From the NCBI GenBank assembly GCA_963720545.1, contig OY970399.1:2438908-2502907 (forward strand): a stretch of 64,000 nt of DNA. The letters run 5' to 3'. The notes below the pieces were generated by a model. The model saw nothing but the letters and a program-made list of their open reading frames with translations, was not told the origin of the DNA and searched no databases. This DNA is from an uncultured Acidobacteriota bacterium. GTDB taxonomy: Bacteria > Acidobacteriota > Vicinamibacteria > Fen-336. Each line of letters starts with the position of its first letter. Position 1 is the stretch's first letter. Below, in pieces: positions 22,610-52,595 of this stretch. The position numbers and the translations under genes were made by a program.

Positions 22610-22622
22610 GAGGCGCCTCGCC

Positions 22623-22997: not shown

Positions 22998-22999
22998 GA

Positions 23000-30270: not shown

Positions 30271-30299
30271 CCGCCAACCTTTTCCGCCGGGCCGCCGTC

Positions 30300-30342: not shown

Positions 30343-30699
30343 ATGGACATCCAAACGGCCGCACCGGCGACCATCGAGGCGGCGAAGAAGGGCAGCGCCG
30401 ACCTCCTCATCCTGGCACTCGTGGACGAGCGGCCGCTGCACGGTTACGACATCGCCCGCCTGATCGAGGCGCGCTCGGGCGGCACGCTGCGCTTCACTCT
30501 CGCGTCCCTGTACGCGACCCTCTACCGGCTGGAGGAGCGCGAGCAGCTCAAGGGCGCGTGGCTCGAGAAGGCGGGGCAGCGCCGCCGCCGCTACTACCGC
30601 ATCACGCTGAAGGGCCGGAAGCTGCTGGCCGAGCAGCGCGCCGACTGGACGCGCTTCATCGCGGCACTGAGCGCCGTTGCCGGGCTCAACCAGGCATGA
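30343..30699 (+). CDS. PadR family transcriptional regulator
   Basis: PadR winged-HTH (DLLILALVDERPLHGYDIARLIE...LYATLYRLEE). ATG at 30343 is preferred over the track GTG at 30319. Stop overlaps the next start (ATGA). Confidence 0.8.
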   Translation: MDIQTAAPATIEAAKKGSADLLILALVDERPLHGYDIARLIEARSGGTLRFTLASLYATLYRLEEREQLKGAWLEKAGQRRRRYYRITLKGRKLLAEQRADWTRFIAALSAVAGLNQA

Positions 30700-34847: not shown

Positions 34848-35423
34848 ATGGCGGGACTGATCGAGGCGATCGACATCAAGCGGCGCACCTTTTTCGAGAG
34901 CGAGGGGGTGCCGTTCACTGCCATCGACGTCGAGATCTCCCGGCCCACGGCGCGCGGCGGCCAGACACTGGTGCGCATCAAGATGCGCAACCTCATCACC
35001 CGTGCGGTCTTCGACCGCACCTACAAGGCCGGCGAGAAGTTCCAGGAGCCCGACCTGGAGATGGTGCCGGCGTCCTATCTCTACGGCGGCAACGACGGCT
35101 ACAACTTCATGGACCAGAACACCTACGACACCCTGACGCTCGGCGCGGACATGATCGGCGACGACCGGCAGCTGCTGGTCGAGAACATGCTGGTGCAGAT
35201 CCAGAAATTCAACGGCCGCCCCATCGGCGTGTCTTTGCCGCAGCACGTCGAGCTCAGCGTCGCCTCCACCGAGCCGGCCGTGCGCGGCGACACCGCGAGC
35301 GGCGGGGCCACCAAGATCGCGGTGCTCGAGACCGGGCTTGCGGTGCGCGTGCCGCTGTTCATCGAGGAAGGCGAGCGCGTGCGCGTGCACACCGAGACGC
35401 GCGAGTTCGTCGGCCGGGCCTAG
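34848..35423 (+). CDS. efp: elongation factor P
   Basis: GGAGG RBS. KOW/OB architecture. Modification loop reads SRPTARGGQTL. Confidence 0.9.
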   Translation: MAGLIEAIDIKRRTFFESEGVPFTAIDVEISRPTARGGQTLVRIKMRNLITRAVFDRTYKAGEKFQEPDLEMVPASYLYGGNDGYNFMDQNTYDTLTLGADMIGDDRQLLVENMLVQIQKFNGRPIGVSLPQHVELSVASTEPAVRGDTASGGATKIAVLETGLAVRVPLFIEEGERVRVHTETREFVGRA

Positions 35424-35427
35424 CCCG

Positions 35428-37569
35428 CTAGCGGCCGCCGGTCTCGCTGCCGCGCAGCCCGCGCAACAGCTCGGCGTTGCGCCGCACTGCGGCTTCGAGG
35501 GTGTTCGCCTGCTGCTGCGCGACCGGCCAGTTCGACGCCTCGACCGCTTCGGTCAGCCCCGGCAGCTCCAGGTGCGCGTAGGTGAAGCGCGCCGCGTACA
35601 CCATGTGCTTGAACCACGGCCGGCCCGGAATGCCGTCGGGGTTCAGCCAGTTGCCTTCGACCGCCATCAGCGCCTTGTTGAGCGCGGCTTTCGACTCGTC
35701 GCTTAGCGGCGCGCGCAGCGACGCCGCCAGGTACGCGTTGGCGTCGGCGCCAGCCGTCTCGAACGCGGTGAGCGCCGTGAGCAGCGGCTTGAAGTCGACC
35801 TTCGCCGCGGCCCCGGGCTTCGCCGCGACCTCGTTCGTGAAGGCGCGCATGTGCTTCGCGTACAGCGCGAAGTCGAACGGCAGGAGCTCGGCATTCGCGA
35901 GGCGCAGGCCCACCACGCCCCAGAGCTGCGCCATCAGCGTGTGGTACTTGTAGCCGGGATCGCCAAAGCGGTTCATCCAGTAGAAGTTGTCGTAGGCCGA
36001 GTGGTAGACGCCGTAGTCGCCGTCGAAGCCGAGCAGCATGGTGGGCCGGCCGAGGAAGTTGAGGAACACCGTGTGGTCGGAGCCGCTGCCGATCCTGGTG
36101 TCGGTGAGCTCGTCGTCGCCGATCGACTTCGCGCCGCGCCGCGCCGCGGCACTCTTCTTCCAGGCGTCGTAGAGCGAGCTTCCCGAAGGATCCTTGAGCG
36201 TCCTGGTGGCCTCGACCAGCATCGGCGCCAGCGACGGCACGCTGCTCGCGTCGAGCCGCGGACCCGAGGTGGACGAGTCGACGTTGAGGTACGCGACCAT
36301 CTTTTCCCTGAGTGCGTCCGCGAACTGCTCGCCCCATTCGGTCGAGCCGGTGAGGCCGACCTCCTCGCCGTCCCAGCTGCAGAAGACCAGCGTGCGCCGC
36401 GGCCGCACGCCGACCCTCAGCAGCGCGCCGAGCCCGCGTGTCAGCTCCATCATCGACGCCGTGCCGCTCGACGGGTCGACGCCGCCGAACTCCCAGGCGT
36501 CGCGGTGATTGCCGAACACCACCCAGTCGTCGGGCAGCTCGCTGCCACGAATGCGCGCCTCGACCACGTAGTTGGGCAGGATGTTCGTGTCCATGTCGAT
36601 CTTGAGGTGCACGCGGCCGACGCCGCCGAGCCGGTAGCGGATGGGCAGCCCGCCCTGCCAGTCTTTCGGCGCCAGCGGACCGCCCATGTTCGCGAGCAGC
36701 GGCCTGGCGTCGCGCCACGACAGCGCCAGCGCCATGATCTTCGGCAGCGACTGCGCTTCGCTGCCCGCCACCCGCACGGCGGTCTCGACCGAGGCATAGC
36801 CGGGCGTCAGCGGGTCGCCGGGCACGATGAAGTCGTAGGTGATGGCGCCGCGCTGGATGTGGCTCTCCGGACCCCACGGCCCGTTGGGATAGACCTTGCC
36901 CCTCTTGAAGCCGTCCTCGGCCGGATCGGAATAGATGAGGATGGCCGCCGCGCCTTCGCGCTGCGCCGTCAGCGCCTTGAAGCCGCGGTAACTGTACGGG
37001 TTCGAGTAGCGCACCAGCACGATCTTGCCGCGCACGTCGATGCCGCTCATCTTCAGGTGCGCGTAGTCCTCGGGGTTGCCGCCGCGCGCGTACACGATCG
37101 GCGCCGTGACCTCGCCGGAGCGCGACATGCCGAGGTAGGCGCCGCGGATCCGCGGGTTGGCGGTGTCGGGATCTTCCGGGTAAACGTCCTCGCGCAGGCT
37201 CGCGACGTACCTGACCGGCGACACCATGTCGAGGGCGATCTCGCGCGGGTACGAGTTGAGGACGTCGTAGCGGCGGATGACGATGTCCTCGAGCCCCTGG
37301 TCTTTCCACGTGTCGGCGATGTACTGGGCCAGCTCGTTGTTGCGCGTCGAGCCCGCCGGGTGCGGTTCGGACGTGAACACGCGGTGGAAGTCGCGCGCCG
37401 ACTCGGGCGTCGGGATCGCCGTGAAACGGGCCTCCACGGCCAGCTGGCGGGCCGCGGCCGCCGTGCCGAAGCCGAGGATGCCGGCACTCGCCGGCGCGGC
37501 CGCGTCCTGCGCGGAACCCGCGGGCAGGACCGCCGCCGCGAACAACACGAGTGCTGCGGGAATTCTCAA
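35428..37569 (-). CDS. M28 family peptidase with PA and transferrin-receptor-like dimerisation domains (glutamate carboxypeptidase II-like), secreted
   Basis: TTG start giving signal peptide [23 protein letters not shown]. Zn ligands of M28 (HxD, DGEE, H). PA domain insert. Confidence 0.85.
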
Positions 37570-38477
37570 CTGGTGGCCACCTGTTCGGCGAGGGCAATGG
37601 CGCCGAGCGAGCCGGCACGGTTGCCGAGGCCCGGCGCGACGATGAAATTGTCGAGGTCCGCGAGCAGCTGCGGCGCGCGGATGTAATTGTTGAGCCACGC
37701 GGCCACCGCGGCGCGGATCGCGGGGAACAGGGCCGCATTCGCCATCACGCCGCCGCCGAGGACGATGCGCTGCGGCGACAGCGTGCACACGAACGTGGCG
37801 AGCGCCGACGCGAGATAGCCGGCTTCGAGCGCCCAAGCGGGATGATCGGCGGGGAGCGTTTCGGCCGGCACACCCCAGCGCTCCTTCATCGCGGTACCGC
37901 TCGCGAGTCCCTCGAGGCAGTCGCCGTGATAGGGGCAGCACCCCGGATACGGGTCCTGCGTGCGGTCGTGGCGAACCGGGATGTGGCCCATTTCCGGGTG
38001 CACGAGGCCGTGCATCCTCTGCCCGTCGAGGACGCCGCCGCCGCCGATGCCGGTGCCTATCGTCATATAGAGGAACGAATCGAGGCCTTGCGCGGCGCCC
38101 CAGCGCCCCTCCGCCAGCGCGGCCCCGTTCACGTCGGTGTCGAATCCTACTGGAACGCCGAGCGCGCGGCGCGCGGCCTCGACGATCGCCACATTCGCCC
38201 AGCCGGGCTTGGGGGTCGAGGTGATGCATCCGTAGCTGGGCGAGGCGGCTCGCAGGTCGATCGGCCCGAACGATGCGATGCCCACGGCCCGCAGGCGGCC
38301 GTGCTGCGCGTGCTGGGCGGCAAGGAACTCGAGCGAGCGGGCGAGGGTCTCGGCCGGGGTGGTGGTGGGGAAGCGAGCCTCGGCGCGGATGTCGTCGGGC
38401 CCGGTGCCCACGAGGCAGACGAACTTGGTGCCGCCCGCCTCGATGCCGCCGAAGGGCTCCTGCGTCATTTCCGTCAC
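37566..38477 (-). CDS. ROK family sugar kinase (fructokinase/glucokinase-like)
   Basis: ROK motifs including the Zn site CxCGxxGCxE-like ([11 protein letters not shown]). N-terminal ATP site GIEAGGTKF. Confidence 0.8.
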
Positions 38478-39091
38478 TCGGCTTCGTCGAACGAGACGAG
38501 ACCGGTTTCGAGCGAATACTCGGCGCCCACCACCAGCAGCCCCTGGTCGCGGATCAGTTGCTCGATGATCTGCGACCCGCGCCGCAGGTGGCGCACCGAC
38601 TCGCGGATGTTGGCGCGCACCCCCTGCGCGACCAGCTGCTCGAAGTCGCCACCCCAGCCCGACTGCAGCAGCGCGCCCACCGAAGGCCGCACGAAGTCGA
38701 CGATCGAGCGGATGCTCTCCGAGTGGCTGGTCTCCGGCCGCAGCAGCTGTTCGAGGGTCGCGAGCACCACGCCGCAGCGGGAATGGCCGAGCACCACCAC
38801 CAGCCGCGTGCCGAAGCGCGCGGCCGCGAACTCGACGCTGCCGACCTGCGACGGCGCCACGATGTTGCCGGCGACGCGGATGACGAACAGGTCGCCGAGG
38901 CCCTGGTCGAAGACGATCTCGGCGGGCACCCGCGAGTCGGAGCAGCCGAGGATGATGGCGAATGGCTCCTGGCTTTGCGCGAGCTCGGCGCGCCGCGCCT
39001 GGCTGAGGTAGGAAGAAGCGCCGCCGCGGTTCGCGGCGAACCGCTCGTTGCCTTCGCGGAGTTGCCGGAGGGCGTCGCGGGCGTTGACCAT
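38474..39091 (-). CDS. beta-class carbonic anhydrase
   Basis: CSDSR, HSRCG and GAEYS motifs. Overlaps the ROK start (ATGA). Confidence 0.85.
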
Positions 39092-39115
39092 GCTGCCGCG
39101 CAGTCTACTAAGAGG

Positions 39116-42100
39116 TCAGAGTCCGAGCGGCGCCTGGACGAACACCGTGGTGCCGCGGCCGGGGCTGCTCTCGATCTCGAGGCGGCCGCCGATGAAGGCG
39201 GCGCGCTCGTGCATGCCGAGGAGGCCGATGCCGCGCTCCTGCGCGCCGGTGGCGCTCTCGCCCTTCTGGAAGCCGACGCCGTCGTCCTCGATCACCAGCA
39301 CCACCTCGTCGCCGCGCCGCTCGAGGATCACGCCCACCCGCGCCGCATGCGCGTGCTTGTAGACGTTGTTGAGGGCCTCCTGCGCGATGCGGTAGAGGTT
39401 CGTCTCCACCTCGAAGGCGAGCCGCACCGAGTCGAGGCCGCTGCCGTGGTAGTCGGCCGGGATGCCGAATTCCTTCGACCATTCGCGCACGAAGTCGGCG
39501 AGCGTCGCGACCAGGCCGAGGTCGTCGAGCGCCGCGGGCCGCAGCTCCCAGGTGAAGAAGTCGAGGTCGCGGTCGAGGCGCGCGATGGTCTTGCGCGCCT
39601 CGGCGATCGCCGCGCGCAGCGCCGGGTCCTGCGGCGACAGCTCGTTCAGTGCGTCGATGCGCAAGCCGAGGCCGGCAACCTGCTGGCCCAGGTGATCGTG
39701 CAGGTCGCGGGCGATGCGGCTGCGTTCGTCCTCCTGCACGGTGATCAGCCGCCGCATCAGGCTTCGGATCTCGTCCTCGGCCGCGTGCCGCTCCTGCAGC
39801 TTGGCATCGAGCTCCGCGTTCGCCGCGCCGAGCTCGGCGGTGCGCTGCTCGACGCGCGTCTCGAGCTCGCCGTGCGCCTCGAGCAGGGTGTCTTCGAGGC
39901 GCTTGCGCTCCGTGAGGTCGCGCGCGATGGTGACGAAACCGACGAGCGCGCCGCCGCTGTCGCGCAGCGCCACGATCTCGCCGCTCGCGAAGAAGCGCGA
40001 GCCGTCCTCGCGCAGGAGCCAGCGCTCGTTGCTCGCCTGGCCCTCGCTCCCGGCGCGTGCCAGCTCGGCGCGCGGCACCTCCGCGAGGCGGTCCTCGGGG
40101 GTGAACAGCACGTCGATGGGCCGGCCCACCGCCTGGTCCTCGCGGTAGCCGAACATGCGCTCGGCGCCCGGGTTCCAGCTGTCGATGCGGCCGCCGAGGT
40201 CGGTGGTGAAGATCGCGTAGTCGGTGGCGCTCTCGAGGATGAGGCGCAGGCGCCGTTCGCTGCCTTGCAGCTCTTCGGCGCGGCGCTGCTCGCTCAGGTC
40301 GATCACGAAGCCGACCGCCTCGTCCGGACCGAGGCGGGTGGCCGTGAACAGGCTCCACCAGCGGCTGCCGTCGCGGCGCAGCAGCAGCTGTTCGCGCGGC
40401 GCGATCCTGCCGGTGTCCAAAAGCTGCCGCATCGCGGCGCCGGTGCGCGCGCGCTCCTCGGGCGGAATCATCGCCTGCCATTGCACCCGGCGGTGGCTGA
40501 GGTCCGCCGAGTCATGGCCGGTCATGCGCAGGAAGGCCTCGTTGGCGTCGATCACCACGCCGGTGCTGGTGAAGAACAAGACGCCCACGGTCTCGATGCC
40601 GATGGCGCGCCGCAGCCGCTCTTCCGAGGCGCGCAGCGCCTGTTCGGTGCGCCGGCGCTCGGTGATGTCGACGAACGTCAGCACCACGCCGCCGATGCGT
40701 TCCTCGGCGGTGCGGTAAGGAAGGATGCGCATGAGCTGCCAGCGGCCGTCGCGCGTCGCGACCTCGCGCTCGACGCGTTCCAGGCGCTCCAGCACCAGGG
40801 CGATGTCGTCCTGGAGTTCGGGGGCGACCAGCCAGCTGTTGATGTCGGAGAGCGGCCGGCCGCGATCGGCAGGTATCAGCGTGAACACGTCGCGCGCGCG
40901 CGGCGTGAACAGCTTCACGTGCGACTGGCGGTCGAGGAAGATGGTGCCGATCTCGGTGGAGTTGATCAGGTTGCGAATGTCGTCGTTCGCCTGGACTTGC
41001 TCCTCGACCTTGATCTTCAGCTCCTGGTTGACGGTGCGCAGCTCCTCGTTCAGCGACTGCAGTTCTTCCTTGCTCGTCTCCAGCTCCTCGGCCGACGAGC
41101 GCATCTCTTCGTTGATCGCCTGCAGCTCCTCGTTCGACGCCTGCAGTTCCTCGGCCTGGGTCTCATGATGCTCGACGGTGGCGCGGTGCAGTGCCTGCAG
41201 GCGCTGCAGCTCCGCCTCGAGATGGCGCACGGCGTCGTCGCCGCCGAGTTGCTCCGCCTTCGTGGCGGGCGTGAGCAGCGCGTCCGATGCCAGCTCGTGG
41301 AACAAGACCAGGAAGAAGCCCGCCGCGGGATCGCCGGCGCCCAGCACCGGCCGCACCGTGAGGTCGACGACCACCTGCCCCGAGTCGAGTTCCAGCGTGA
41401 GCCCCCGGGCCTCGACGGTCACGCGCTGCTGCGCGGCGTGGTGGAGCGCGGTGCGCAATTCGAGGCGCAGCGCGGGACGGACGGCGCGCAGCAGGTTGTA
41501 AGTCGGGTCGCCGCCGGCGATCTGCAGGTAACGGCCGGCGCGGTCGGACACGTGGACGATGTCGAACCGCTCGTTGACCACGACCGACGGCGGCGCGTAC
41601 TGCTCCAGGAGGCGCTGGTGCAGTTCCGCCGTCGACATGTGTTCCCGGGCGCCGTGCATCGCGAGCGCCGGCGCGAGGCCGGGCACCCGGTTCTCGCCAG
41701 CGACCCGCAGTTCCGGGATGACCACGTTGAGGCGCGGCGCGGCCGCGCGGCTGTTGAAGAGGCATGCCTCCTTGTCGACCGTGGCGAACAGGTCGCCGGC
41801 ACCCTCGATCGACTCGGAGGAGCCGAGGAACAGGAACCCGCCGGCGTTCAGCGCGAAGTGCGACATCTCCAACACCTGCTGCTGCGCGGTGCGGTTCAGG
41901 TAGATGAGCAGGTTGCGGCACGAAATGAGGTCGAGGTGCGAGAACGGCGGATCCTTGACCACGTTGTGGTGGGCGAACAGGACCATTTCGCGCAGCTCCT
42001 TGCGCACGCGGTAGCGCTCGCCCTCCTTGGCGAAGAAGCGCCGCAGCCGCTCGGGGGCCACGTCGGCGCAGTCGTTGAGCGTGTAGAGGCCATCGCGGGC

Positions 42101-43159
42101 GCGCGCCACCGCATCGCCATCGAGATCGGACGCGAACACCTGGATGGCCGGCGGCGCCGACAGCTCCGCGGCCGCCTCGGCCAGCAGCATAGCCAGCGAA
42201 TAGGCCTCCTCACCGGTGGCGCAGCCGGCGCTCCACACGCGCACGTGGTCGTTTTCGCCTTTGCCCGCGAACAGCCGCGGGACGACCGCTTTCTCGAGCG
42301 CCGCAAACGCTGCTGGGTCGCGAAAGAAGCTGGTGACACTGACGAGCAGGTCCTTGAGGAGCGCCTGCGCTTCCCCGGGTTGGTCGCGCAGGTAGACAGC
42401 GTAGCCCGGCAGGTCGTGGATGCCGCGCAGCCCCATGCGCCGCGCCAGCCGCCGCAGGACCGTCGCCTGCTTGTAGTTGGCGAAGTCGTGACCGGTGCTG
42501 CCGCGCAGCAGGGCGAAGATGTCGCGCAGCGCCTCTTCGTCGCTCGGCGGCGGATCGGCGGACGGCTCGGGGAGCCGCACTTCGCCGAGGCTGCGCTTGT
42601 ACGCCAGGATCGCTGCGGGCATGGCCGCGACTCCCAGCACGTGATCGGCGAGGCCGGTGGCGATCGAGTTCTGCGGCATCTCCGCGAACTCCGCTTCACC
42701 GGGATCCTGCACCAGGCAGACGCCGCCCAGCTCCTTGACCCGCTTCAGGCCCATCGAGCCGTTGGCGCCCGTGCCGGAGAGCACCACCGCCACTGCGTGC
42801 GCGTGCTGCGACTCGGCCAGCGTGCGGAAGAAGATGTCGACCGGCGCGCGCCGCTCCGCGAAGCCCTCGATCTCGGCGAGGGACAAGTGGCCGTCGGCGA
42901 GCGTCAGGCTGCGGTTGGGTGAGATGACGTAGACGTGGTCGGGCGCAACCGCCACGCGTCCCTCGACCTGGGTCACCGCAATCGAGCTGGAGAGCTGCAC
43001 GACCTCCGCCAGCTTGCTGTCGTGGTCGGGCGACAGGTGCAGCACCACGACGAACGCCATGCCGCTGTCCGCGGGCACATTCTCGAAGAAGCGTCTGATG
43101 GCCTGGATGCCGCCAGCCGATGCGCCGATGCCGACGATCACGAAATCAGTCGCAGCCAT
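39116..43159 (-). CDS. hybrid signalling protein: CheB methylesterase, CheR methyltransferase, EEL-heptad coiled coil, two PAS domains, then a HisKA_3/HATPase_c histidine kinase; no REC domain
   Basis: ATG at 43159 (MAATDFVIVGIGASAGG is a CheB catalytic domain). CheR SAM-binding region. Eight EE[L/M] heptads at residues 738-796 of the ORF track. PAS domains. H-box RIARDLHDHLGQ. ATPase G-boxes. The ORF track N-terminal extension is rejected. Confidence 0.85.
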   Translation of the reverse strand: MAATDFVIVGIGASAGGIQAIRRFFENVPADSGMAFVVVLHLSPDHDSKLAEVVQLSSSIAVTQVEGRVAVAPDHVYVISPNRSLTLADGHLSLAEIEGFAERRAPVDIFFRTLAESQHAHAVAVVLSGTGANGSMGLKRVKELGGVCLVQDPGEAEFAEMPQNSIATGLADHVLGVAAMPAAILAYKRSLGEVRLPEPSADPPPSDEEALRDIFALLRGSTGHDFANYKQATVLRRLARRMGLRGIHDLPGYAVYLRDQPGEAQALLKDLLVSVTSFFRDPAAFAALEKAVVPRLFAGKGENDHVRVWSAGCATGEEAYSLAMLLAEAAAELSAPPAIQVFASDLDGDAVARARDGLYTLNDCADVAPERLRRFFAKEGERYRVRKELREMVLFAHHNVVKDPPFSHLDLISCRNLLIYLNRTAQQQVLEMSHFALNAGGFLFLGSSESIEGAGDLFATVDKEACLFNSRAAAPRLNVVIPELRVAGENRVPGLAPALAMHGAREHMSTAELHQRLLEQYAPPSVVVNERFDIVHVSDRAGRYLQIAGGDPTYNLLRAVRPALRLELRTALHHAAQQRVTVEARGLTLELDSGQVVVDLTVRPVLGAGDPAAGFFLVLFHELASDALLTPATKAEQLGGDDAVRHLEAELQRLQALHRATVEHHETQAEELQASNEELQAINEEMRSSAEELETSKEELQSLNEELRTVNQELKIKVEEQVQANDDIRNLINSTEIGTIFLDRQSHVKLFTPRARDVFTLIPADRGRPLSDINSWLVAPELQDDIALVLERLERVEREVATRDGRWQLMRILPYRTAEERIGGVVLTFVDITERRRTEQALRASEERLRRAIGIETVGVLFFTSTGVVIDANEAFLRMTGHDSADLSHRRVQWQAMIPPEERARTGAAMRQLLDTGRIAPREQLLLRRDGSRWWSLFTATRLGPDEAVGFVIDLSEQRRAEELQGSERRLRLILESATDYAIFTTDLGGRIDSWNPGAERMFGYREDQAVGRPIDVLFTPEDRLAEVPRAELARAGSEGQASNERWLLREDGSRFFASGEIVALRDSGGALVGFVTIARDLTERKRLEDTLLEAHGELETRVEQRTAELGAANAELDAKLQERHAAEDEIRSLMRRLITVQEDERSRIARDLHDHLGQQVAGLGLRIDALNELSPQDPALRAAIAEARKTIARLDRDLDFFTWELRPAALDDLGLVATLADFVREWSKEFGIPADYHGSGLDSVRLAFEVETNLYRIAQEALNNVYKHAHAARVGVILERRGDEVVLVIEDDGVGFQKGESATGAQERGIGLLGMHERAAFIGGRLEIESSPGRGTTVFVQAPLGL

Positions 43160-43184
43160 GGATTGCTGCCAGATAGTATAGGGA

Positions 43185-43838
43185 ATGGCCCGCGTGCGGA
43201 TCCTGCTCGCCGACGACCACGAGACCGTGCGCGAGGGGCTGAAGGCGATCCTGAACGCGCAGTCCGACATGGAAGTGGTCGGCGAAGCGATCGACGGCAG
43301 GAGCGCTGTCGCGCTCGCCTGCAGGCTCAACCCCGACCTGGTGGTCATGGACGTTTCGATGCCGGACGTCAATGGCCTGCGCGCGACCGAACTGCTGAAA
43401 GAGCGCTGCCCGGCGGTGCGGGTGGTGGCGCTGAGCCGCCACTCCGACGACGGCTACTTGCGCGAGCTGCTGCGCGCCGGCGCCGCTGGCTACGTGCTGA
43501 AGCAGAGCCGCTCGGGCGAGCTGCTGCAGGCGATTCGCGCGGTCGCCGCCGGCGGCAGCTACCTCGACCCCGCGATCACCGCCAACGTGATCCGCGACTT
43601 CGGTGCCCGGCCGGCAACCGCGCGACCGCCTGCCGACGCAAGCCTCAGCCCGCGCGAGGAGGAGACCCTGCGGCTCGTGAGCCTCGGCTACAGCAACAAG
43701 GAAATCGCCTCGCGGCTCACCCTCAGCGTCAAGACGGTGGAAACTCACAAGGCGAACGGCATGCACAAGCTCGGGTTCCGCAGCCGCATCGACATCGTGC
43801 GCTTCGCGGTTCTCAGGGACTGGCTGAAGGACCCGTAG
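43185..43838 (+). CDS. NarL/FixJ family response regulator (REC plus LuxR HTH)
   Basis: Phosphoacceptor in LVVMDVSMPD. C-terminal LuxR HTH (EIASRLTLSVKTVETH). Divergent from the hybrid kinase with a 25-nt gap. Confidence 0.9.
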   Translation: MARVRILLADDHETVREGLKAILNAQSDMEVVGEAIDGRSAVALACRLNPDLVVMDVSMPDVNGLRATELLKERCPAVRVVALSRHSDDGYLRELLRAGAAGYVLKQSRSGELLQAIRAVAAGGSYLDPAITANVIRDFGARPATARPPADASLSPREEETLRLVSLGYSNKEIASRLTLSVKTVETHKANGMHKLGFRSRIDIVRFAVLRDWLKDP

Positions 43839-44418
43839 TCTCAGGCACCAGCGGGCTGGCGAGCAGGCGCCCGAGCAGCGGTGGGATTTCCGCGAGCGTC
43901 GCGATGTGGTCGACGTCGACGTGCGCCGCGGCGCTGCCGGGCATCGACGGGAACTGCGCGTCTTGCGGATCCTGCACGACCGCGATCCCGCCCAGGCGCT
44001 TGATTGCCGCGAGGCCCGCCGTGCCGTCATCGAGGTTGCCGGTGAGGATCACGCCGATCGCCGCCGCGCCATACGCTTGTGCGGCCGAACGGAACAGGGG
44101 ATCGATCGCAGGGCGAAAGCGATTTTCCTTCGGCCCCCTGATCACAGCCAGCGCGCCGGGTTCGATCAGCAGGTGATGGTCGGGCGGCGCGACGTAGAGA
44201 TGCCCCGCCTCGAGACGGGCACCATTCTCAGCATTCGCGACCGGCAGCCGCGTCGCGCGCCGCAGGATTTCGTCGATCACACCGGGCGAGTCGGCTGCGG
44301 TGTGGATGACGACGCAGATGGCGGCGGGCAGGCCTTCGGGCAGAGCGCAGACGATCCGGCGGACGGCATCGATCCCGCCCGAGGAAGCGCCGATGACCAC
44401 GACTCGCCTGGCGTCCAT
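43813..44418 (-). CDS. stand-alone CheB-type methylesterase catalytic domain protein (no REC)
   Basis: CheB_methylest motifs (VVIGASSGG, HLYVAPPDHHL, VILTGNLDDGTAG). Convergent 26-nt overlap with the response-regulator gene. Confidence 0.8.
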   Translation of the reverse strand: MDARRVVVIGASSGGIDAVRRIVCALPEGLPAAICVVIHTAADSPGVIDEILRRATRLPVANAENGARLEAGHLYVAPPDHHLLIEPGALAVIRGPKENRFRPAIDPLFRSAAQAYGAAAIGVILTGNLDDGTAGLAAIKRLGGIAVVQDPQDAQFPSMPGSAAAHVDVDHIATLAEIPPLLGRLLASPLVPETTGPSASP

Positions 44419-44545
44419 CGTCTCACTTCAGTATCAACCTCATTTCTAAACCCGGCCGTCGTTCATTGCACCTCGGGGAAAACCCTGATGAAAGTGTCTG
44501 CCTTCCCGATTTACATGCGCTGCGCGACTGGAGAAACCTGTCTCC

Positions 44546-45358
44546 TTGGAACTCGCCAATCCTTCCCTGCAGCACGTTCCCCTGCCGACCGACGGCAATG
44601 GCGATGCGGCCGCCAGTCACGCGGAGTTGCGCAAGCAACTCGTGGAAGCACAGGCCGCCTTGTCTAGCGCCACCACCGCAGCACGCCTCAAGGATCATTA
44701 CCTCGCGACCTTGTGTCACGAGTTGCGGCAGCCGCTCGCCGCCGGCTATTCCGCGCTCGAGGTGATGCGCCTCAGCCTCAGTCCCGAGCGCCGTCAGCGC
44801 GCGGCCGAGATCATCGAGGCACAACTGCGCCACGTCGCGCGCCTCATCGACTACGCCGCCGAGATGTCGGAAACGAACCGCCGGGACGGTGACGCCGAGC
44901 GGCGCGAAACGGCCGACCTGCGGGAGCTGGTCGAGCGCGGGCTCGCGATGACGGCACCACTCTTCGACCAGCAGCGCCACCGTGTGCAAGTGGCGCTGGG
45001 TGCGGCCCCGGTGTGGCTGCGCGTCGACCCGACGCGCATGGTGCAGGCGTTCGCCAACCTGCTGCGCAACGCCGCGAGCTATACGCCGCCGGGCGGCGAG
45101 ATCGCGGTGATGCTGACGCAGACGCCATCAGAGGTGTGCTTCCGCGTGCGCGACAACGGCATCGGCATCCGCGCGGAGGCCCTGGAGCGGATCTTCGAGC
45201 TGTTCGAGCAGCAGGCGCCGAACACCGCGCCGGCGAGCCGCGGCATCGGCCTCGCGGTCGTGCGCCAGGTGGTGGAGGGCCACGGCGGCACCGTCGCCGC
45301 CCAAAGCGACGGCGACGGCATGGGCAGCGAGTTCGTGGTGGTGCTGCCCTCCGCCTAG
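44546..45358 (+). CDS. cytoplasmic sensor histidine kinase (HisKA plus HATPase_c) with no sensor domain
   Basis: TTG start. H-box LATLCHELRQPL. N, G1 and G2 boxes present. Confidence 0.75.
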   Translation: MELANPSLQHVPLPTDGNGDAAASHAELRKQLVEAQAALSSATTAARLKDHYLATLCHELRQPLAAGYSALEVMRLSLSPERRQRAAEIIEAQLRHVARLIDYAAEMSETNRRDGDAERRETADLRELVERGLAMTAPLFDQQRHRVQVALGAAPVWLRVDPTRMVQAFANLLRNAASYTPPGGEIAVMLTQTPSEVCFRVRDNGIGIRAEALERIFELFEQQAPNTAPASRGIGLAVVRQVVEGHGGTVAAQSDGDGMGSEFVVVLPSA

Positions 45359-46239
45359 TTCCTGGTGCCGAGGCGCGCGGTTTCGGTGAACCGCAGTCGC
45401 AGCACCGTGCCCTCGGGAAGCTCCACGTTCTCGCCCTTGGTGGCCGCGAGCGTACCGCCCCCGCCGACCACGGCGCCGAGCAGGACGCCCTCCTTGCCGC
45501 CGATCACCCCGCCGATCACCCCGCCGAGAAGCGCGCCGAGGCCGCCCTTCTTCGCCGAGCTGCCACCCGAGTGTTGTTCACTCACCGACACGACGGTAGT
45601 GCGAATGCTGGTGGCCGCACCCTCCATGTCGAGGCTGCGGAAATCGAGGGTGAGCCGCCCGTCCCTCTGGACGCGCTCCGCGGTCTGCACGTCGGTCACG
45701 ATCCCCGACACGGGCGTGCCGGCAGGCACCACCTCGCGTCCGGCGACCATGATCGGGTCGAGCGTGGTGGCTTCGGCCCGGTCCTCGATGCGGGCGGTGC
45801 GCGACGACAGCGGCTGGTCGAGGCTCACCTCGAATTCGGTGCCGGCGGGAATTTCCGCATCGCGGCCAGCGTCGGGCTGCGCGGCGCGGTCGAGCGTCGC
45901 GTCGATGTCCCGGCGCAGGGCGGCGGCCGACTGCTGGACCTGCTGCACCTTTTCCACCGTGGCACCGTCGCCGCGACTCGGGTCTTCACGGCGCTGGCGC
46001 ATCTGGCCCTCGAGCCAGGTGACGTCGTCACGGAGGTCCTGGGCGCGCCGCTCGAACTCGGCCCGCCGCGGGTTTTCCGCCGGCAGCGCGTCGAGGGCCT
46101 CGTCGAGGCGCGTCAGCTCCGTCTGGAGCGAGCGCAGGTCTCGCCCGCGCGCCGCTTGTGCATGGGCCGCAATGCTCATCACTCCGAGCAGGATCGCCGT
46201 GAATGCGCTGAGCAACAGGCCAGGATGACGATGCTTCAT
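45355..46239 (-). CDS. secreted coiled-coil protein with a C-terminal glycine-zipper region
   Basis: Signal peptide MKHRHPGLLLSAFTAILLGVMSIAAHAQA. Coiled coil. GGLGALLGGVIGGVIGG glycine zipper. Confidence 0.6.
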   Translation of the reverse strand: MKHRHPGLLLSAFTAILLGVMSIAAHAQAARGRDLRSLQTELTRLDEALDALPAENPRRAEFERRAQDLRDDVTWLEGQMRQRREDPSRGDGATVEKVQQVQQSAAALRRDIDATLDRAAQPDAGRDAEIPAGTEFEVSLDQPLSSRTARIEDRAEATTLDPIMVAGREVVPAGTPVSGIVTDVQTAERVQRDGRLTLDFRSLDMEGAATSIRTTVVSVSEQHSGGSSAKKGGLGALLGGVIGGVIGGKEGVLLGAVVGGGGTLAATKGENVELPEGTVLRLRFTETARLGTRN

Positions 46240-46376
46240 AAGGATATCTCCCCGAAAATGGTCCAAACTTTCCATGAGGAGCAAGGACCATGCCCGTCTT
46301 CGGCCCCGGAAGCCTCCACATCCGGCCCTTCTGGTACCCACTAGCCGGACGAATGTACAAAGGAGATACTCGGCTC

Positions 46377-47330
46377 ATGGGGATGAAGAGATATCGGACC
46401 ACCGCATTCGCCCTCGCCTGTGCTGCGCTGCTTTGTTCGCCGCTGCCCGCGTCCGCGCCCGCGCCACAAGCCGCCGCTCCCGCCACCCAGTCGCGGACAG
46501 CCACCGTGGACGGCGCGCTTGTGCACTACCTCACCGCAGGGCAGGGCCCCGCGGTGCTGCTGCTGCACGGCTATGCCGAAACCTCGCGCATGTGGCGGCC
46601 ACTCATCCCGCGGCTCGCGCCGGGTTTCATGGTGGTCGCACCCGACCTGCCGGGTATCGGCGATTCCGCAGTTCCGGCCGAGGGCGTCGACATGAAGCGC
46701 TCGGCCATTCGCATCCACGGCCTGATGAAGAGCCTCGGTGTCGAGAAGGCGGTGGTGGTGGGTCACGACATCGGCCTCATGGTCGCCTATGCGTACGCCG
46801 CGCAGTTTCCGGCGGAAACCGAAAAGCTGGTGCTGATGGATGCCTTCCTGCCTGGTGTCGAGGGGTGGGAGGCGATCTACGACAATCCGGCGATCTGGCA
46901 TTTCCGTTTTAACGGCCCCACCCCCGAGGCGCTCGTGAAGGGACGCGAGCGCACCTACTTCGAGCACTACTGGAACGATTTCGCGGCGAACCCGAAGCAG
47001 TCGATCCCGGATTCGGAGCGCCAGGCGTATACCGCGGCCTATGCGCGTCCGGGCCGTATGCGCGCGAGCTGGGCCTACTTCATCGACTTCCCGCGCACCG
47101 CGAAGGAGTTCGCGGTCCTGGCGCAGACGAAGCTCAGCATGCCGCTGCTGACGATTGGCGGCGAGAAGGCGAACGGCGAGGCGCTCGCGCAGCAGGCGAA
47201 GCTGGTCGCGACCGATCCGAAGTCGGTGGTCTTGCCCAACACCGGCCATTGGCTCATGGAGGAGAACCAAAGGGCGACGATGGACGCGATCCTGGCGTTC
47301 ATCGGCCCTGCGCCCGAGGCGAAGCGCTGA
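46377..47330 (+). CDS. alpha/beta hydrolase (epoxide hydrolase/haloalkane dehalogenase-like), secreted
   Basis: AAGGAGA RBS. HGYAETS oxyanion region, GHDIG nucleophile elbow (Asp), and C-terminal His. Confidence 0.85.
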   Translation: MGMKRYRTTAFALACAALLCSPLPASAPAPQAAAPATQSRTATVDGALVHYLTAGQGPAVLLLHGYAETSRMWRPLIPRLAPGFMVVAPDLPGIGDSAVPAEGVDMKRSAIRIHGLMKSLGVEKAVVVGHDIGLMVAYAYAAQFPAETEKLVLMDAFLPGVEGWEAIYDNPAIWHFRFNGPTPEALVKGRERTYFEHYWNDFAANPKQSIPDSERQAYTAAYARPGRMRASWAYFIDFPRTAKEFAVLAQTKLSMPLLTIGGEKANGEALAQQAKLVATDPKSVVLPNTGHWLMEENQRATMDAILAFIGPAPEAKR

Positions 47331-47376
47331 ACTGAAAGTACTGGCGCGGCGCCACGCTCGGGGGTACGGTCGAGGT

Positions 47377-48810
47377 ATGGATACCCGGAAGTTGCCGCAA
47401 CTGTTCTGCGTCATCGCTGCAACGCTCACTGTTGCCGCGGCGCCGGCCGTCGCCGCGCCGCTGCCGAACGTCGTCGTAATCATGACCGACGACCAGACGC
47501 TCGACTCGCTGCGCTTCATGCCGAGGGTGCTGTCGCTCCTCGGCAGCGAGGGCACCACTTTCGACAACAACTTCGTGTCGTTCCCGTTGTGCTGCCCGTC
47601 CCGCGCCACCTTCCTGACGGGCCAGTACTCGCACAACCACGGCGTCAACAGCAATAATCCGCCGCTCGGCGGCTACACCCAGCTCGACCACACGAACACT
47701 CTTGCCGTCTGGCTGCAGGCTGCCGGCTATCACACGACGCACATCGGCAAGTACCTGAATGGCTATGGAACCGGCGGCGTGCCGCAGACCGAGATCCCTC
47801 CCGGCTGGAGCGACTGGCAGGCGACCGTCGGCTTCTCCGCCTACAAGATGTACGGCTACACGGTGAACGAGAACGGCACCCTGGTGCAGTACCGCAACGA
47901 GCCGGCCGACTACCAGACCGATGTGCTCGCGGCGCGTGCGGTTGCCGCGCTGCACGCGCGGGCGCTGGCAGGCGGGCCGTTCTTCATGTGGATAGCACCG
48001 CTGGCGCCGCACGCCGAGGCCGGCGGCGACGGGCCGCGCGCGGCGCCTCGCCACGAGGGCGCTTTCGCCGCCGAACCGCTGCCGATGCCGCCCTCGTTCA
48101 ACGAAGCCGACGTCAGCGACAAGCCGCACTCGATTGCCAATCTGCCGTCGCTGACGCCCGCGCAGGTGACGGCGGTGACGGCGCGCTATCGCGATCGCCT
48201 CGAGTCGCTGCTGGCAGTCGACGATCTTGTGGAGGGCGTCTACAACCAGCTTGCCGCGGACGGGCTGCTCGCGAACACGTACCTCATCTTCACCTCGGAC
48301 AACGGTTTCTTCCAGGGCGAGCACCGGGTGAAGCAGGGCAAGACCAAGCTCTACGAAGAGTCGGTGCGCGTGCCGCTCATCGTCCGCGGGCCCGGCTTCG
48401 CCGCGGGTGCCCACAGCAGCGCGCTGGTCGCGAACATCGACTTCGCGGCGTCCCTGGTCGCGTGGACAGGCGCGACGCCGGCACGCGTGCTCGACGGCCG
48501 CAACCTCCGGCTCGCCGCCAACCATCCGGGCACGCTGGCGAGCCGCACCATCCTCCTGGAGAACGGCGACGAGTCGACGGGGGCGCGCTACACCGACGGC
48601 ATCCGCACCAGGCGCTATGTGTATCTCGAATGGCGCTTTCCGACCAAGCCCACCGAGTTCGAGCTTTACGACCTGTCCGCGGACGCGTACCAGCTCACGA
48701 ACCTGCACGGCGACGCCGCGTACGCGGCGATCGAGGCGAGCCTGGCGCAGAAGCTGGGTGAACTGAAGGTGTGTGCCGGCGGTGCCTGCGACAGCGTCCG
48801 CTATCCCTGA
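47377..48810 (+). CDS. Cys-type sulfatase (arylsulfatase family)
   Basis: Signal peptide. CCPSR FGly motif. Sulfatase metal ligands. Confidence 0.85.
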   Translation: MDTRKLPQLFCVIAATLTVAAAPAVAAPLPNVVVIMTDDQTLDSLRFMPRVLSLLGSEGTTFDNNFVSFPLCCPSRATFLTGQYSHNHGVNSNNPPLGGYTQLDHTNTLAVWLQAAGYHTTHIGKYLNGYGTGGVPQTEIPPGWSDWQATVGFSAYKMYGYTVNENGTLVQYRNEPADYQTDVLAARAVAALHARALAGGPFFMWIAPLAPHAEAGGDGPRAAPRHEGAFAAEPLPMPPSFNEADVSDKPHSIANLPSLTPAQVTAVTARYRDRLESLLAVDDLVEGVYNQLAADGLLANTYLIFTSDNGFFQGEHRVKQGKTKLYEESVRVPLIVRGPGFAAGAHSSALVANIDFAASLVAWTGATPARVLDGRNLRLAANHPGTLASRTILLENGDESTGARYTDGIRTRRYVYLEWRFPTKPTEFELYDLSADAYQLTNLHGDAAYAAIEASLAQKLGELKVCAGGACDSVRYP

Positions 48811-48822
48811 CCTTGCGGCGCT

Positions 48823-49881
48823 TCAGGCGTCCGCGACGAAGATGCGCACCTGCCGCGGCTTGACGAAGAAACGATCGCCGGTCACGGGCTGCAGCACTTC
48901 ATAGCGCTCGCGCGTGACGTCCACCTGCACCAGGCCGGTCTCGTCGTCTTCCAGTTCGAGCTTGACGACGGCGCCGCCCGGATTCACGTGGCGCAGCACG
49001 GCCCAGAAGCCGTCGCCGTCCTGCTCGCGCCACAGCTCGAGGTCGTGCGGCCGGGCGAATGCCTTGGCCGGAAGCATTTCGCTCGCCGGGTGCTCGGGGT
49101 AGTCGACCGAGAGCGATCCGAAATGCGCCCGGCCCTCGGCGACGCGGCCCTTGAACACGTTGACGCTGCCGAGGAAGCCCATCACGAACTGCGTCGCCGG
49201 ACGATCGAACACCTCCTGCGGCGTGCCGACCTGTTCGACCTTGCCTTTGTTCATCACCACGACCTGGTCGGCCACTTCGAGCGCCTCTTCCTGGTCATGG
49301 GTGACGAACACCGAGGTGACGCGAATCTCGTCGTGCAGGCGCCGCAGCCAGCGGCGCAGCTCCTGGCGCACCTTGGCGTCGAGCGAACCGAACGGCTCGT
49401 CGAGCAGCAGCACCTTCGGCTCCACCGCGAGCGCGCGGGCCAGCGCGACACGCTGCCGCTGCCCGCCGGAGAGCTGCGAAGGGTAGCGATCGCCGAGCCA
49501 GTCGAGCTGCACCAGCTTCAGCAGGTCGGAAACCTTCCGGCGCACTTCCGCCTCCGGCGGGCGGCTGGCGCGCGGCCGCACCCGCAGGCCAAACGCCACG
49601 TTCTCGAAGACGCTCATGTGGCGAAACAGCGCATAGTGCTGGAACACGAAACCGACGCCGCGGTGGCGGACATCGGCGCGGCTCGTGTCCTCGCCGGCGA
49701 AGAAGATCTGGCCGCGGTCGGGGCGCTCCAGGCCGGCGATGATGCGCAACAGGCTGGTCTTGCCCGACCCCGACGGTCCGAGCAGCGCCACCAGCTCGCC
49801 GGTGGGCACGGTGACGCTGACGTCGTCGAGCGCGACAAACGAACCAAACGTCTTGGTGACGTTGCGGACTTCAATCGACAT
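48823..49881 (-). CDS. cysA: sulfate/thiosulfate ABC transporter ATP-binding protein
   Basis: Walker A GPSGSGKT. Signature LSGGQRQR. C-terminal TOBE-like domain. Confidence 0.9.
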
Positions 49882-50740
49882 GAATGTTCTCCAGTGGACT
49901 GGTGGAACGTACGGCGGCCGAACGCCATTCGACCGCGGTCTTGGCGACCAGCGTCACGAGCGCGAGCAGGGTGAGGAGCGATGCCACCGCGAAGGCGGCC
50001 TGGAAGTTGTATTCGTTGTAGAGGATCTCGACGTGCAGCGGCAGGGTGTTGGTCTTGCCGCGGATGTGGCCGGAGACGACCGACACCGCGCCGAATTCGC
50101 CCATCGCGCGCGCGTTGCAGAGGATGACGCCGTACAGCAGTCCCCATTTCAGGTTGGGGACGGTGACGCGCCAGAACATCTGCCAGCCCGACGCGCCCAG
50201 CACCCGCGCCGCTTCCTCCTCGTCGGCGCCCTGCGCTTGCATCAGCGGGATCAGCTCGCGCGCCACGAACGGGAACGTGACGAAGATGGTGGCGAGCACC
50301 AGGCCGGGCACGGCGAACACCACGTGTATGCCGAGATTCTGCAGCGTGGGCCCGAGCAGGCTGGTGCGGCCGAAGAGCAGGATGAAGACCACACCGGAAA
50401 TCACGGGCGAGACGCCGAACGGCAGGTCCACGAGCGTGACCAGGACGTTCTTGCCGGGGAACTCGAACCGGGCAATGGCCCAGGACGCGGCGACGCCGAA
50501 AACCAGGTTGAGCGGCACCGCGATCGCGGCGGTGATCAGCGTCAGCTTGAGCGCGGAGAGCGCCATGGGTTCGGTCAGTGCCGTGAAGTAGGCGTTCATC
50601 CCCTTCTGCAGCGCCTCGGTGAACACCGAGACCAGCGGCACCACCAGGAACAAGGCGAGGAACCCGAGCGCCGTGGCGCCCAGCAGGAGCTTGACGGCGA
50701 GCGGCTCGGTGACCGTGCGGCGGCTGTCGCTCATGGTCAT
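49871..50740 (-). CDS. cysW: sulfate ABC transporter permease CysW
   Basis: EAA-loop permease. Start overlaps the cysT stop (ATGA). Confidence 0.85.
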
Positions 50741-51570
50741 TCCGCCGTGCCGAGCCGCGCGCTCCACGACTGCAGCCGGTTGACGCCGAGCAGGATGACG
50801 AACGACGCGAGCAGCGTCACCGTGGCGATCGCCGCCGCGCCGCCGTAGTCGTATTGCTCCAGCTTGGTGATGATGATGAGCGGCGTGATCTCGGTCTTCA
50901 TCGGCATGTTGCCGGCGATGAAGACAACGCTGCCGTATTCGCCGAGCGCGCGCGCAAAGGCGAGCGAGACGCCGGTGAGCCACGCCGGCATGAGGCTCGG
51001 CATCACCACGCGGCGCACCGTTTCGAAGCGCCCGGCACCGAGACTGGCGGCGGCCTCTTCCACTTCGGGGTCGAGGCTCTCGAGCACCGGTTGCAGCGTG
51101 CGCACCACGAACGGCAGGCCGATGAAGGTGAGGGCGATCATGATGCCGAGCGGTGTAAACGCCGCCTTGATGCCGAGCCGGCCGAGGGGTTCGCCGAGCC
51201 AGCCGTTGGGGGCGTAGAGGGTGGTGAGCGCGATGCCCGCGACCGCGGTGGGCAGCGCGAACGGCAGGTCGACGAGCGCGTCGATGAGGCGACGCCCGGG
51301 AAAGCGGTAGCGCACCAGTACCCAGGTGACGATGAGCCCGAACACGCCGTTGATCGCCGCGGCCACCAGCGAGGCGCCGAAGGTGAGCTTGTAGGAAGCG
51401 ACCACGCGCGGCGCCGTCACCGCCGCCCAGAACCCGGCAGCCCCGAGGCTGGTGCTGCGCACGAACAGGGCCGCGAGCGGCACCAGCACGATCAGCGACA
51501 GGTAGAGGAGCGTGTAGCCGAGCGATAGCCCGAAGCCCGGCAGCACGCTGTGGCGCTTGCGAAAGAGCAT
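50737..51570 (-). CDS. cysT: sulfate ABC transporter permease CysT
   Basis: EAA-loop permease paralog of CysW. Confidence 0.85.
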
Positions 51571-51582
51571 GGAATCGGGCCC

Positions 51583-52584: not shown

Positions 52585-52595
52585 GGGATGACTCC

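Follow-up and report, generated by a model that had tools for sequence, protein, structure and literature searches.

Architecture of the fusion sensor kinase

We analyzed a stretch of 64,000 nucleotides from an uncultured acidobacterium (Acidobacteriota; Vicinamibacteria; Fen-336; contig OY970399.1, positions 2,438,908 to 2,502,907), referred to as the window, which contains the gene of a sensor kinase whose N-terminal part consists of chemotaxis-type methylation enzymes. This fusion kinase gene lies at 39116..43159 on the minus strand, starts with an ATG at 43159, and encodes 1347 amino acids, one fewer than stated in the initial annotation of this DNA (1348). Reading frames were chosen by third-position G+C, the G+C content of the window being 64 to 73%. 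A protein of equal length and 98% identity (P0001) is encoded at locus L001, which belongs to the same species. On one side the gene is accompanied by a divergent response regulator gene, a stand-alone cheB gene and a small kinase gene, and on the other side by genes for a carbonic anhydrase, a ROK sugar kinase and a peptidase. The following domains were recognized in the fusion kinase.

42608..43135, minus strand: CheB methylesterase domain without a receiver (REC) domain, residues 9-184 (Pfam; alignment to PDB 1A2O/1CHD; family columns)
41774..42532, minus strand: CheR_N (residues 210-261) and CheR (residues 275-462) domains (Pfam; alignment to PDB 1AF7/1BC5/5FTW)
41291..41632, minus strand: PAS-like domain, residues ~510-623, behind CheR and ahead of the helix (precomputed Pfam PAS_4 for the 98%-identical protein; AlphaFold)
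40958..41233, minus strand: Glu-rich helix, candidate methyl-accepting segment, residues 643-734 (AlphaFold; conservation)
40661..40975, minus strand: PAS_10 domain, residues 729-833 (Pfam, 7e-30; AlphaFold)
39890..40612, minus strand: two further PAS domains, residues ~850-1090 (Pfam PAS_3, PAS_4, PAS, PAS_9; TIGR00229 in three stretches)
39125..39727, minus strand: HisKA_3 (residues 1145-1210) and HATPase_c (residues 1251-1345) domains (Pfam; H-box DLHDHLGQ)

The order of domains is thus REC-less CheB, CheR, PAS, a 92-residue Glu-rich helix, PAS_10, two PAS domains, HisKA_3, and HATPase. Pfam E-values were 1.8e-47 for CheB_methylest, 4e-13 for CheR_N, 1.4e-53 for CheR, and 7e-30 for PAS_10, and in the C-terminal part 9e-32 for PAS_4, 8e-10 for HisKA_3, and 8e-15 for HATPase_c; a Pfam match to Response_reg was found nowhere in the protein. 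The kinase core matched the NarX, UhpB, LiaS, and MctS cores of NCBIfam, every one below its cut-off. An AlphaFold2 model covering residues 1-840 only had a mean predicted local distance difference test score (pLDDT) of 80 and a predicted template modeling score (pTM) of 0.54. In this model the region ~510-623 has the strand and helix pattern of a PAS domain, with pLDDT values mostly between 68 and 83 in this block. The CheB, CheR, coiled-coil, and HisKA_3 parts of the initial annotation were confirmed, but four PAS-like domains were found in place of the two reported. By a hydropathy scan only, used in place of a transmembrane predictor, the fusion kinase is probably soluble, because its most hydrophobic 19-residue stretch (mean Kyte-Doolittle value of 1.78) falls inside a PAS strand.

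Catalytic residues of the CheR and CheB domains

The CheR domain aligned end to end with solved structures of CheR proteins specific for methyl-accepting chemotaxis proteins (MCPs), with an E-value of ~1e-31, and its motifs FFRD, W-x-x-GCATGEE, ASD-x-D, and CRNLLIYL are intact. Among 121 homologues, FFRD, W-x-x-GCATGEE, A-S/T-D-x-D, and CRN-L-L-I-Y were invariant or nearly so. We take the GxGxG-like CATGEE segment, the acidic ASD-x-D motif, the Arg of FFRD, and the Tyr of IY to be those that act in binding of S-adenosylmethionine (SAM) and in catalysis. SAM-binding residues, whose loss had been named in the initial annotation as a possible objection to its proposal, are therefore in place, as judged from the alignment to 1AF7/1BC5 and from family conservation.

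The fused CheB domain deviates from the canonical Ser-His-Asp triad. In an alignment with Salmonella CheB (1A2O), Ser14 and His41 of the fused domain align with Ser164 and His190, but the place of Asp286 is taken by Asn133 (codon AAC, 42761..42763, minus strand), so that the triad is incomplete, a point overlooked in the initial annotation. Among 177 fused domains, Ser and His showed no variation, and the acid position was Asp in 95 cases and Asn in 80, with no other residue; the residue following it was always Gly. On a tree of 120 sequences constructed by the unweighted pair group method with arithmetic mean, the position switched between Asp and Asn at least 20 times, in some cases between proteins with 94% identity. 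All eight stand-alone partner CheB proteins that were aligned have Asp at this position. A dependence of the Asn form on the presence of a stand-alone CheB was ruled out, as Asp and Asn forms both have such a partner. Asn-Gly is the classical setting for spontaneous deamidation, and Cys-His-Asn triads occur in papain-type enzymes; the Asp/Asn-Gly toggle could be a functional switch, for instance by timed deamidation of Asn-Gly or by separating a deamidase from an esterase role.

Scores against the NCBIfam models of the canonical enzymes were far below the cut-offs: 124.2 versus 435 for the fused CheR (NF007902), 92.8 versus 342 and 82.5 versus 293 for the fused CheB (NF001965/NF009206), and 142.5 versus 342 for the stand-alone CheB of 201 amino acids. 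The latter is nearer to canonical CheB than the fused domain (95 bits versus 62 bits against 1CHD). A REC domain was absent from both CheB proteins according to Pfam and NCBIfam.

The glutamate-rich helix

In the AlphaFold model, residues 643-734 form an uninterrupted helix with pLDDT values of ~90 over residues ~670-734. The core of the helix (residues 670-725) consists of the eight heptads EELQASN, EELQAIN, EEMRSSA, EELETSK, EELQSLN, EELRTVN, QELKIKV, and EEQVQAN, with EE or QE pairs and the pattern EE-x-x-[A/S/T]-x-x repeating every seven residues; residues 663-720 include 18 Glu and only 5 Lys or Arg. In our own reading of the register, Leu would occupy position d and Asn position a of a parallel coiled coil, with the Glu pairs at the exposed positions b and c. 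The classical consensus for MCP methylation sites is Glu-Glu-X-X-Ala-Ser/Thr, which is exactly matched by the EELQAS of the helix. The eight heptads fit this short consensus and vary only to Gln, methylation itself being putative.

The helix core was nearly invariant in the 121 homologues and also in 269 distinct sequences taken from clusters at 50% identity. In these 269 sequences, the EE pairs at residues 677-713 were substituted by Gln 13 times and by Asp in no case; the lone Glu residues outside the pairs (648, 666, and 719) were replaced by Asp in 24, 24, and 59 cases, respectively. Position 712 was Gln in 239 of the sequences. Judged from this variation, the Gln-only pattern at the pairs is that expected of a CheR/CheB substrate and not of helix packing alone, since a side chain of the exact length of Glu or Gln appears to be demanded, which is substrate-like behavior going beyond packing.

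The helix was also linked to CheR. Among 147 diverse helix-bearing representatives, 52 had the order CheB-CheR-PAS-helix-PAS_10 and 30 the order CheR-PAS-helix-PAS_10, and wherever the helix was preceded by more than 200 residues (86 representatives), these included CheR. Representatives starting at or inside the helix are largely gene fragments and were not counted as lacking CheR. At locus L015, where a family member has only CheR, a separate cheB gene overlaps its start. The outputs behind the helix block varied and included HisKA_3, HisKA with REC, and GAF-containing hybrid kinases, so that CheB/CheR-PAS-helix-PAS_10 behaves as a portable input module. Based on these sequence features, we propose, with evenly balanced confidence, that the helix would be the kinase's own methyl-accepting segment for the attached CheR and CheB domains and would provide adaptation with a transcriptional output.

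Size and distribution of the family

The architecture, which the initial annotation implied to be unusual, turned out to be common, belonging to a very large family that has a KEGG orthology number as well as product names at RefSeq and JGI. In a protein search, 7999 of the best 8000 scored candidates had E-values of ≤1e-20, and the family thus comprises at least 7999 homologues. The best 120 share the architecture with 47-98% identity (53-98% for those covering 99-100% of the query), and many of them carry the name "CheB/CheR fusion protein", which is the name of KEGG K13924 (cheBR) (PMC11302069). The window protein has the features of K13924 members, namely an N-terminal REC-less CheB, CheR_N and CheR, then PAS-helix-PAS_10 followed by an output, and full-length similarity; its identity to many members is 50-66%. 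The helix-PAS_10 block matched 16,872 clusters at 50% identity, 5,527 of them at E ≤ 1e-30. Residues 1-840 were covered to at least 80% in 259 records of plasmids or chromids spanning several phyla, with hosts including Sinorhizobium, Rhizobium, Paraburkholderia, Azospirillum, Methylocystis, Deinococcus, Spirosoma, and Dyadobacter; RefSeq names for the plasmid copies are "CheR family methyltransferase", "chemotaxis protein CheB", and "PAS domain S-box protein". A search of genome contigs with the fusion kinase yielded three loci with ~60% identity in metagenome-assembled genomes of Vicinamibacterales or Acidobacteriota, and further named sources of homologues were Pyrinomonadaceae and Blastocatellia. 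The fusion kinase is therefore one more member of a widespread and already annotated CheB/CheR fusion family, which apparently is experimentally uncharacterized. NCBIfam holds no model specific for this family, the CheR, CheB, NarX, UhpB, LiaS, and MctS models all scoring far below cut-off, and in PDB we found separate CheR and CheB chains only and no structure of a CheB/CheR fusion.

Conserved partners of the fusion kinase

The genes next to the fusion kinase gene in the window are the following.

43160..43184: divergent gap of 25 nucleotides between the start codons of the kinase and regulator genes (read from the sequence)
43185..43838, plus strand: NarL/LuxR response regulator with REC and GerE helix-turn-helix domains, 217 amino acids (Pfam)
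43813..44418, minus strand: stand-alone REC-less CheB with full Ser-His-Asp triad, 201 amino acids (Pfam, 2.5e-55; alignment to 1A2O/1CHD; orthologue alignments)
44546..45358, plus strand: sensorless soluble kinase with HisKA and HATPase_c domains, 270 amino acids (Pfam; tblastn in loci)
38474..39091, minus strand: beta-carbonic anhydrase, Pro_CA (Pfam; NCBIfam)
37566..38477, minus strand: ROK sugar kinase (Pfam; NCBIfam)
35428..37569, minus strand: M28/PA/TFR_dimer peptidase (Pfam; NCBIfam)

Their neighborhoods were compared with those in acidobacterial contigs L001-L013, where L003 has hardly any flank and L007 and L008 share a contig, and in three annotated plasmids. Of the 11 related loci whose flanks could be read, 10 (9 of them distinct) had a regulator gene with REC and GerE domains beside the kinase gene; in the exception, L009, a TPR-GerE protein takes its place. 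HisKA_3 kinases classically pair with NarL-type regulators, and this pairing together with the adjacency in the 10 loci fits the partnership suggested in the initial annotation, which had also given the distance of 25 nucleotides correctly. The NarL regulator is thus, from gene context and domain type, the probable phosphoryl acceptor of the fusion kinase. With only 25 nucleotides between the divergent starts, each promoter must sit inside the opposite gene, and one or both mRNAs may be leaderless. The gap contains a TAGTAT element ending 6 nucleotides before the ATG of the regulator gene; a scan of 35000..46600 for promoters and terminators gave nothing beyond the expectation from shuffled sequences.

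The 3′ end of the stand-alone cheB gene overlaps that of the regulator gene by 26 nucleotides. A stand-alone CheB_methylest gene also adjoins the kinase gene in L001, L002, L005, L007/8, L010, L011, and L013. Deinococcus sp. QL22, Spirosoma oryzicola, and S. meliloti pSymB each encode a "chemotaxis protein CheB" of 350-368 amino acids next to the fusion or close by. A small response regulator is annotated nearby in Spirosoma and S. meliloti, whereas none is annotated in the Deinococcus stretch; single-domain REC proteins recur near several related loci. Fusion kinase, stand-alone CheB, and response regulator thus recur together across phyla. The partner CheB proteins lack REC and consist of the catalytic domain followed by a conserved C-terminal domain of ~140-150 amino acids with the motif CPxCxG...FRC(H/Q)xGHA(Y/F), in which no Pfam domain was found. 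Such partners are encoded at L002 8862..9866, L007 8706..9695, L016 11898..13004, L017 5795..6847, and L018 5621..6682. The stand-alone CheB of the window is without this Cys/His-rich domain and represents a truncated partner form, because its sequence stops right after the catalytic domain. The initial annotation had recorded this second REC-less CheB gene but missed both its status as a conserved family partner and its truncation. The small HisKA kinase, described there as an orphan, is present as reported; outside the window it recurs in the closest relatives alone (L001, L002, where it has a GAF domain, and L005).

At L006 1..3629, 6-10 kb from a family member, genes for a CHASE3-GAF hybrid kinase, CheR, a REC-less CheB of 207 amino acids, and a REC-HisKA kinase make up another type of CheR/CheB set that adjoins kinases and has no MCP.

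The three genes downstream of the kinase had been described as all coupled by 4-nucleotide overlaps. This holds for the ROK and M28 genes, but 24 nucleotides separate the stop of the kinase gene from the start of the carbonic anhydrase gene, and the junction between the carbonic anhydrase and ROK genes is either a 4-nucleotide overlap with a GTG start or a 4-nucleotide gap with the ATG start called in L001. Their suggested link to the kinase was not borne out either, as the three genes accompany it only in L001, from the same species, and the flanking genes differ in every other locus. They are probably incidental neighbors, even if they are cotranscribed.

Absence of chemotaxis genes from the vicinity

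A Pfam search of ~55 open reading frames spanning the whole window revealed no MCPsignal, CheW, CheA-type, CheC/D/Z/V, flagellar, or pilus domains, and REC domains were present only in the NarL regulator and in a LytTR regulator (59198..59998). A tblastn search of the window with E. coli Tar, CheW, and CheY queries found REC domains only. The earlier statement that the 64 kb contain no gene for a chemoreceptor, CheA, CheW, or CheY is therefore correct, and che or MCP genes immediately flanking the fusion kinase, which the initial annotation had regarded as contrary evidence, were likewise missing from the window. The fusion kinase itself had no Pfam match to MCPsignal and no MCP match in PDB. 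In 11 related loci (L001, L002, and L006-L015), the Pfam gene tables showed no MCPsignal, CheW, or CheA within ±7-10 kb; tblastn with the Tar and CheW queries gave no match in L001-L013, and the three plasmid loci have no annotated che gene except those for CheB and CheR.

The initial annotation overstated the absence of MCP genes from 64 kb as an argument for MCP independence. Because che genes are often located elsewhere, this absence says little alone. In Phaeobacter inhibens, a chimeric cheB-cheR gene was not downregulated together with the che genes in mutants of the CtrA phosphorelay (bioRxiv 10.1101/2025.03.24.645028).

Proposed mechanism and alternative explanations

If the helix is the methyl-accepting segment of the fusion kinase, the following scheme can be drawn. 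The PAS domains would sense cytoplasmic signals and control autophosphorylation of the HisKA_3 histidine, and phosphoryl transfer to the NarL regulator would change transcription. In the kinase dimer, the 92-residue helix would form a parallel coiled coil with exposed EE pairs, which would be methylated by the protein's own CheR domain and demethylated by the fused CheB, the stand-alone CheB, or both, with deamidation of the conserved Gln712. Neutralization of up to ~15 Glu residues per chain would alter the stability of the coiled coil and thereby the coupling of sensor and kinase, so that the charge state of the helix could give the system slow adaptation or a memory like that of a chemoreceptor, but acting on transcription. 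The small HisKA kinase without a sensor would have been added in this lineage only and may feed a second input into the NarL regulator. A self-contained circuit acting on the kinase itself or on an unspecified substrate had already been proposed in the initial annotation; with the EEL segment of the kinase as target, it gains from the conservation of the helix, its linkage to CheR, and the absence of che genes near the relatives, but the argument from 64 kb that was offered for it is weak. Tentatively, and with slightly less than even confidence, we extend the proposal to the family: CheB/CheR-PAS-helix-PAS_10 may be a portable, MCP-independent adaptation device, with the stand-alone CheB as a dedicated demethylase and the Asp/Asn-Gly toggle as a possible switch.

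Several points weigh against a methyl-accepting helix. In the full-text literature searched, no functional study of any family member was found; cheBR/K13924 appeared there only as an annotation, apart from one remark on Phaeobacter. The rest of the genome may encode MCPs. The later MCP consensus, [ASTG]2-x2-EE-x2-[ASTG]2, is fitted by the helix only in its C-terminal half. Judged from the alignment, Asn at the acid position of the triad may cripple the fused CheB. A parallel two-helix coil would be unlike the antiparallel four-helix MCP bundle on which CheR and CheB act, and the inter-domain geometry of the AlphaFold model is unreliable (pTM, 0.54), so that access of the helix to the CheR site is hypothetical. 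The extreme conservation of the coiled coil could stem from a purely structural or signaling role, and the helix is too invariant to show covariation with CheR. Representatives with only PAS-helix-PAS_10 are probably fragments, yet some may be genuine proteins without CheR.

The fused CheB and CheR could instead serve chemoreceptors encoded elsewhere, with the PAS and kinase domains doing no more than tying the methylation of these receptors to transcription or a cytoplasmic signal. We consider this unlikely, although the CheR motifs are complete and the domain aligns end to end with MCP-specific CheR structures, KEGG and JGI place the family under chemotaxis, our view of this genome is limited to 64 kb, and family members reside on replicons of Sinorhizobium and Azospirillum, which are chemotactic genera. 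No MCP, CheA, or CheW was found near the related loci examined in four phyla, and the absence of a REC domain means that CheA would not control the fused CheB. The module is present in Deinococcus, Spirosoma, and Dyadobacter, which to our knowledge are non-flagellated groups generally without Che pathways. Moreover, the Phaeobacter chimera was not coregulated with che genes, the fused domains score far under the NCBIfam cut-offs for CheR and CheB (124 versus 435 and 93 versus 342), and the strict linkage of CheR to an invariant EE helix would be left unexplained.

A similarly improbable explanation is that the EE helix is only a signaling coil and that the enzymes, although active, modify a non-MCP protein in trans, which could be the response regulator, the small HisKA kinase, or a protein encoded at an unlinked site. 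The retention of a second CheB in the cluster and, in close relatives, of a second kinase would suit such a role, as would the single-domain REC proteins recurring near several loci, and many kinases have long conserved inter-PAS helices and no methylation. No neighbor, however, has a comparable run of EE-x-x-A/S/T heptads, and the neighbors differ between phyla, whereas the helix is constant. The substitution of EE pairs by Gln only also fits an enzyme substrate rather than coiled-coil packing alone.

It is still less probable that CheB and CheR form a non-catalytic input module, for example a sensor of the ratio of SAM to S-adenosylhomocysteine or a scaffold, that does not methylate protein. 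Sensor domains derived from enzymes are common in signaling proteins, and Asn replaces the catalytic Asp here and in 80 of the 177 fused CheB domains. The CheR motifs and the CheB Ser and His are nonetheless invariant or nearly so over hundreds of divergent sequences, which argues for retained chemistry, and the intact second CheB conserved beside the gene would be hard to explain if there were no methyl esters to hydrolyze.

Equally doubtful, as a separate question, is a functional unit of the kinase with the carbonic anhydrase, ROK kinase, and M28 peptidase, a CO2-, sugar-, or peptide-responsive operon. The genes do lie on one strand with a gap of 24 nucleotides followed by ~4-nucleotide junctions and no terminator-like site beyond chance between the kinase and carbonic anhydrase genes, but the three adjoin the kinase only in the 98%-identical L001 and the other loci have different flanks.

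Comparison with known systems

Members of the K13924 family share the order REC-less CheB, CheR_N, CheR, PAS, helix, PAS_10, PAS, and kinase as well as the stand-alone CheB and the regulator. The HisKA_3/NarL output of the window member is typical of its acidobacterial relatives, whereas other members use HisKA or hybrid kinases and single REC partners. Peculiarities of the window member are the Asn at the CheB acid position, the truncated partner CheB, and the extra small HisKA kinase.

With the CheR/CheB-MCP system of E. coli and Salmonella, the fusion kinase shares homologous enzyme folds and conserved catalytic residues, and its candidate substrate helix resembles MCP sites in having Glu pairs every seven residues, small residues at +3/+4, and one conserved Gln. 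In contrast to that system, the fusion kinase comes without MCP domain, CheA, and CheW, and its CheB is without a CheA-activated REC domain; enzymes and presumed substrate are joined in one polypeptide, the helix would be an inter-PAS parallel coil, and the output is of the NarL type.

Karniol and Vierstra in 2004 reportedly described alphaproteobacterial HWE/HisKA_2 kinases with N-terminal CheB/CheR domains. That class has the same N-terminal module but a different kinase core and a single-domain REC partner; residues 24-840 are 40-48% identical to the copies in Rhizobium and on S. meliloti pSymB. HisKA_3, HATPase_c, and an adjacent REC-GerE regulator are shared with NarX-NarL, DesK-DesR, and LiaS-LiaR. 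The fusion kinase nevertheless scores only 71.4 versus 578 against NarX and 57.9 versus 553 against NarQ, and is also far under the UhpB and LiaS cut-offs. Unlike NarX-type kinases, it has no transmembrane (by hydropathy), periplasmic P-box, or HAMP part, and its input comes via PAS and CheB/CheR. In Wsp of Pseudomonas and in Che3 of Myxococcus xanthus and Rhodospirillum centenum, adaptation enzymes serve non-motility outputs, such as transcription or development (PMC3447774, PMC3147164, PMC3868531). These systems keep MCP, CheW, CheA, and usually a REC-bearing CheB, whereas here none of these is present and an ordinary histidine kinase is joined to the enzymes.

Other genes of the window

Beyond the small HisKA kinase gene, 45355..46341 (minus strand) encodes a protein of 328 amino acids with one N-terminal hydrophobic segment and a Gly-rich C terminus, which had no Pfam or NCBIfam match and is conserved in L001. 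A sulfur-related stretch follows at 46290..53858, with genes for an alpha/beta hydrolase, a sulfatase, a sulfate ATP-binding cassette transporter of the CysA/T/W type with its binding protein, and an O/P-type porin; an FGE-sulfatase-modifying enzyme is encoded at 16756..17637. The only other two-component pair of the window, at 57900..59998 (plus strand), consists of a LytS-type kinase (His_kinase, PF06580) gene overlapping that of the LytTR regulator. At 30271..33446 (plus strand), a PadR-type regulator region precedes a duplicated MacB/FtsX permease of the ADOP family (30330..33446), which scored above the NCBIfam cut-off (693.6 versus 622.3); in L001 both form one protein of 1034 amino acids. 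Such a permease is in keeping with the acidobacterial source of the DNA. Finally, 21908..23009 (minus strand) contains a pair of a RES-domain toxin and an Xre/MbcA/ParS-type antitoxin.

Implications

The window itself adds one more member to the CheB/CheR fusion family, and the comparison adds candidate sites, namely the EE pairs, Gln712, and the Asn/Asp133-Gly position, as well as the partner CheB, whose C-terminal tail is unannotated. Metagenome studies annotate the family as "chemotaxis" and read its presence as evidence of chemotaxis (e.g., PMC11316352), a reading that may mislead if the proteins work without chemoreceptors. If the helix is indeed methylated by the attached CheR, reversible Glu methylation would not be confined to chemoreceptor arrays but would be a general means of adaptation for kinases that control transcription, thousands of which occur in bacteria of soil and of plants.

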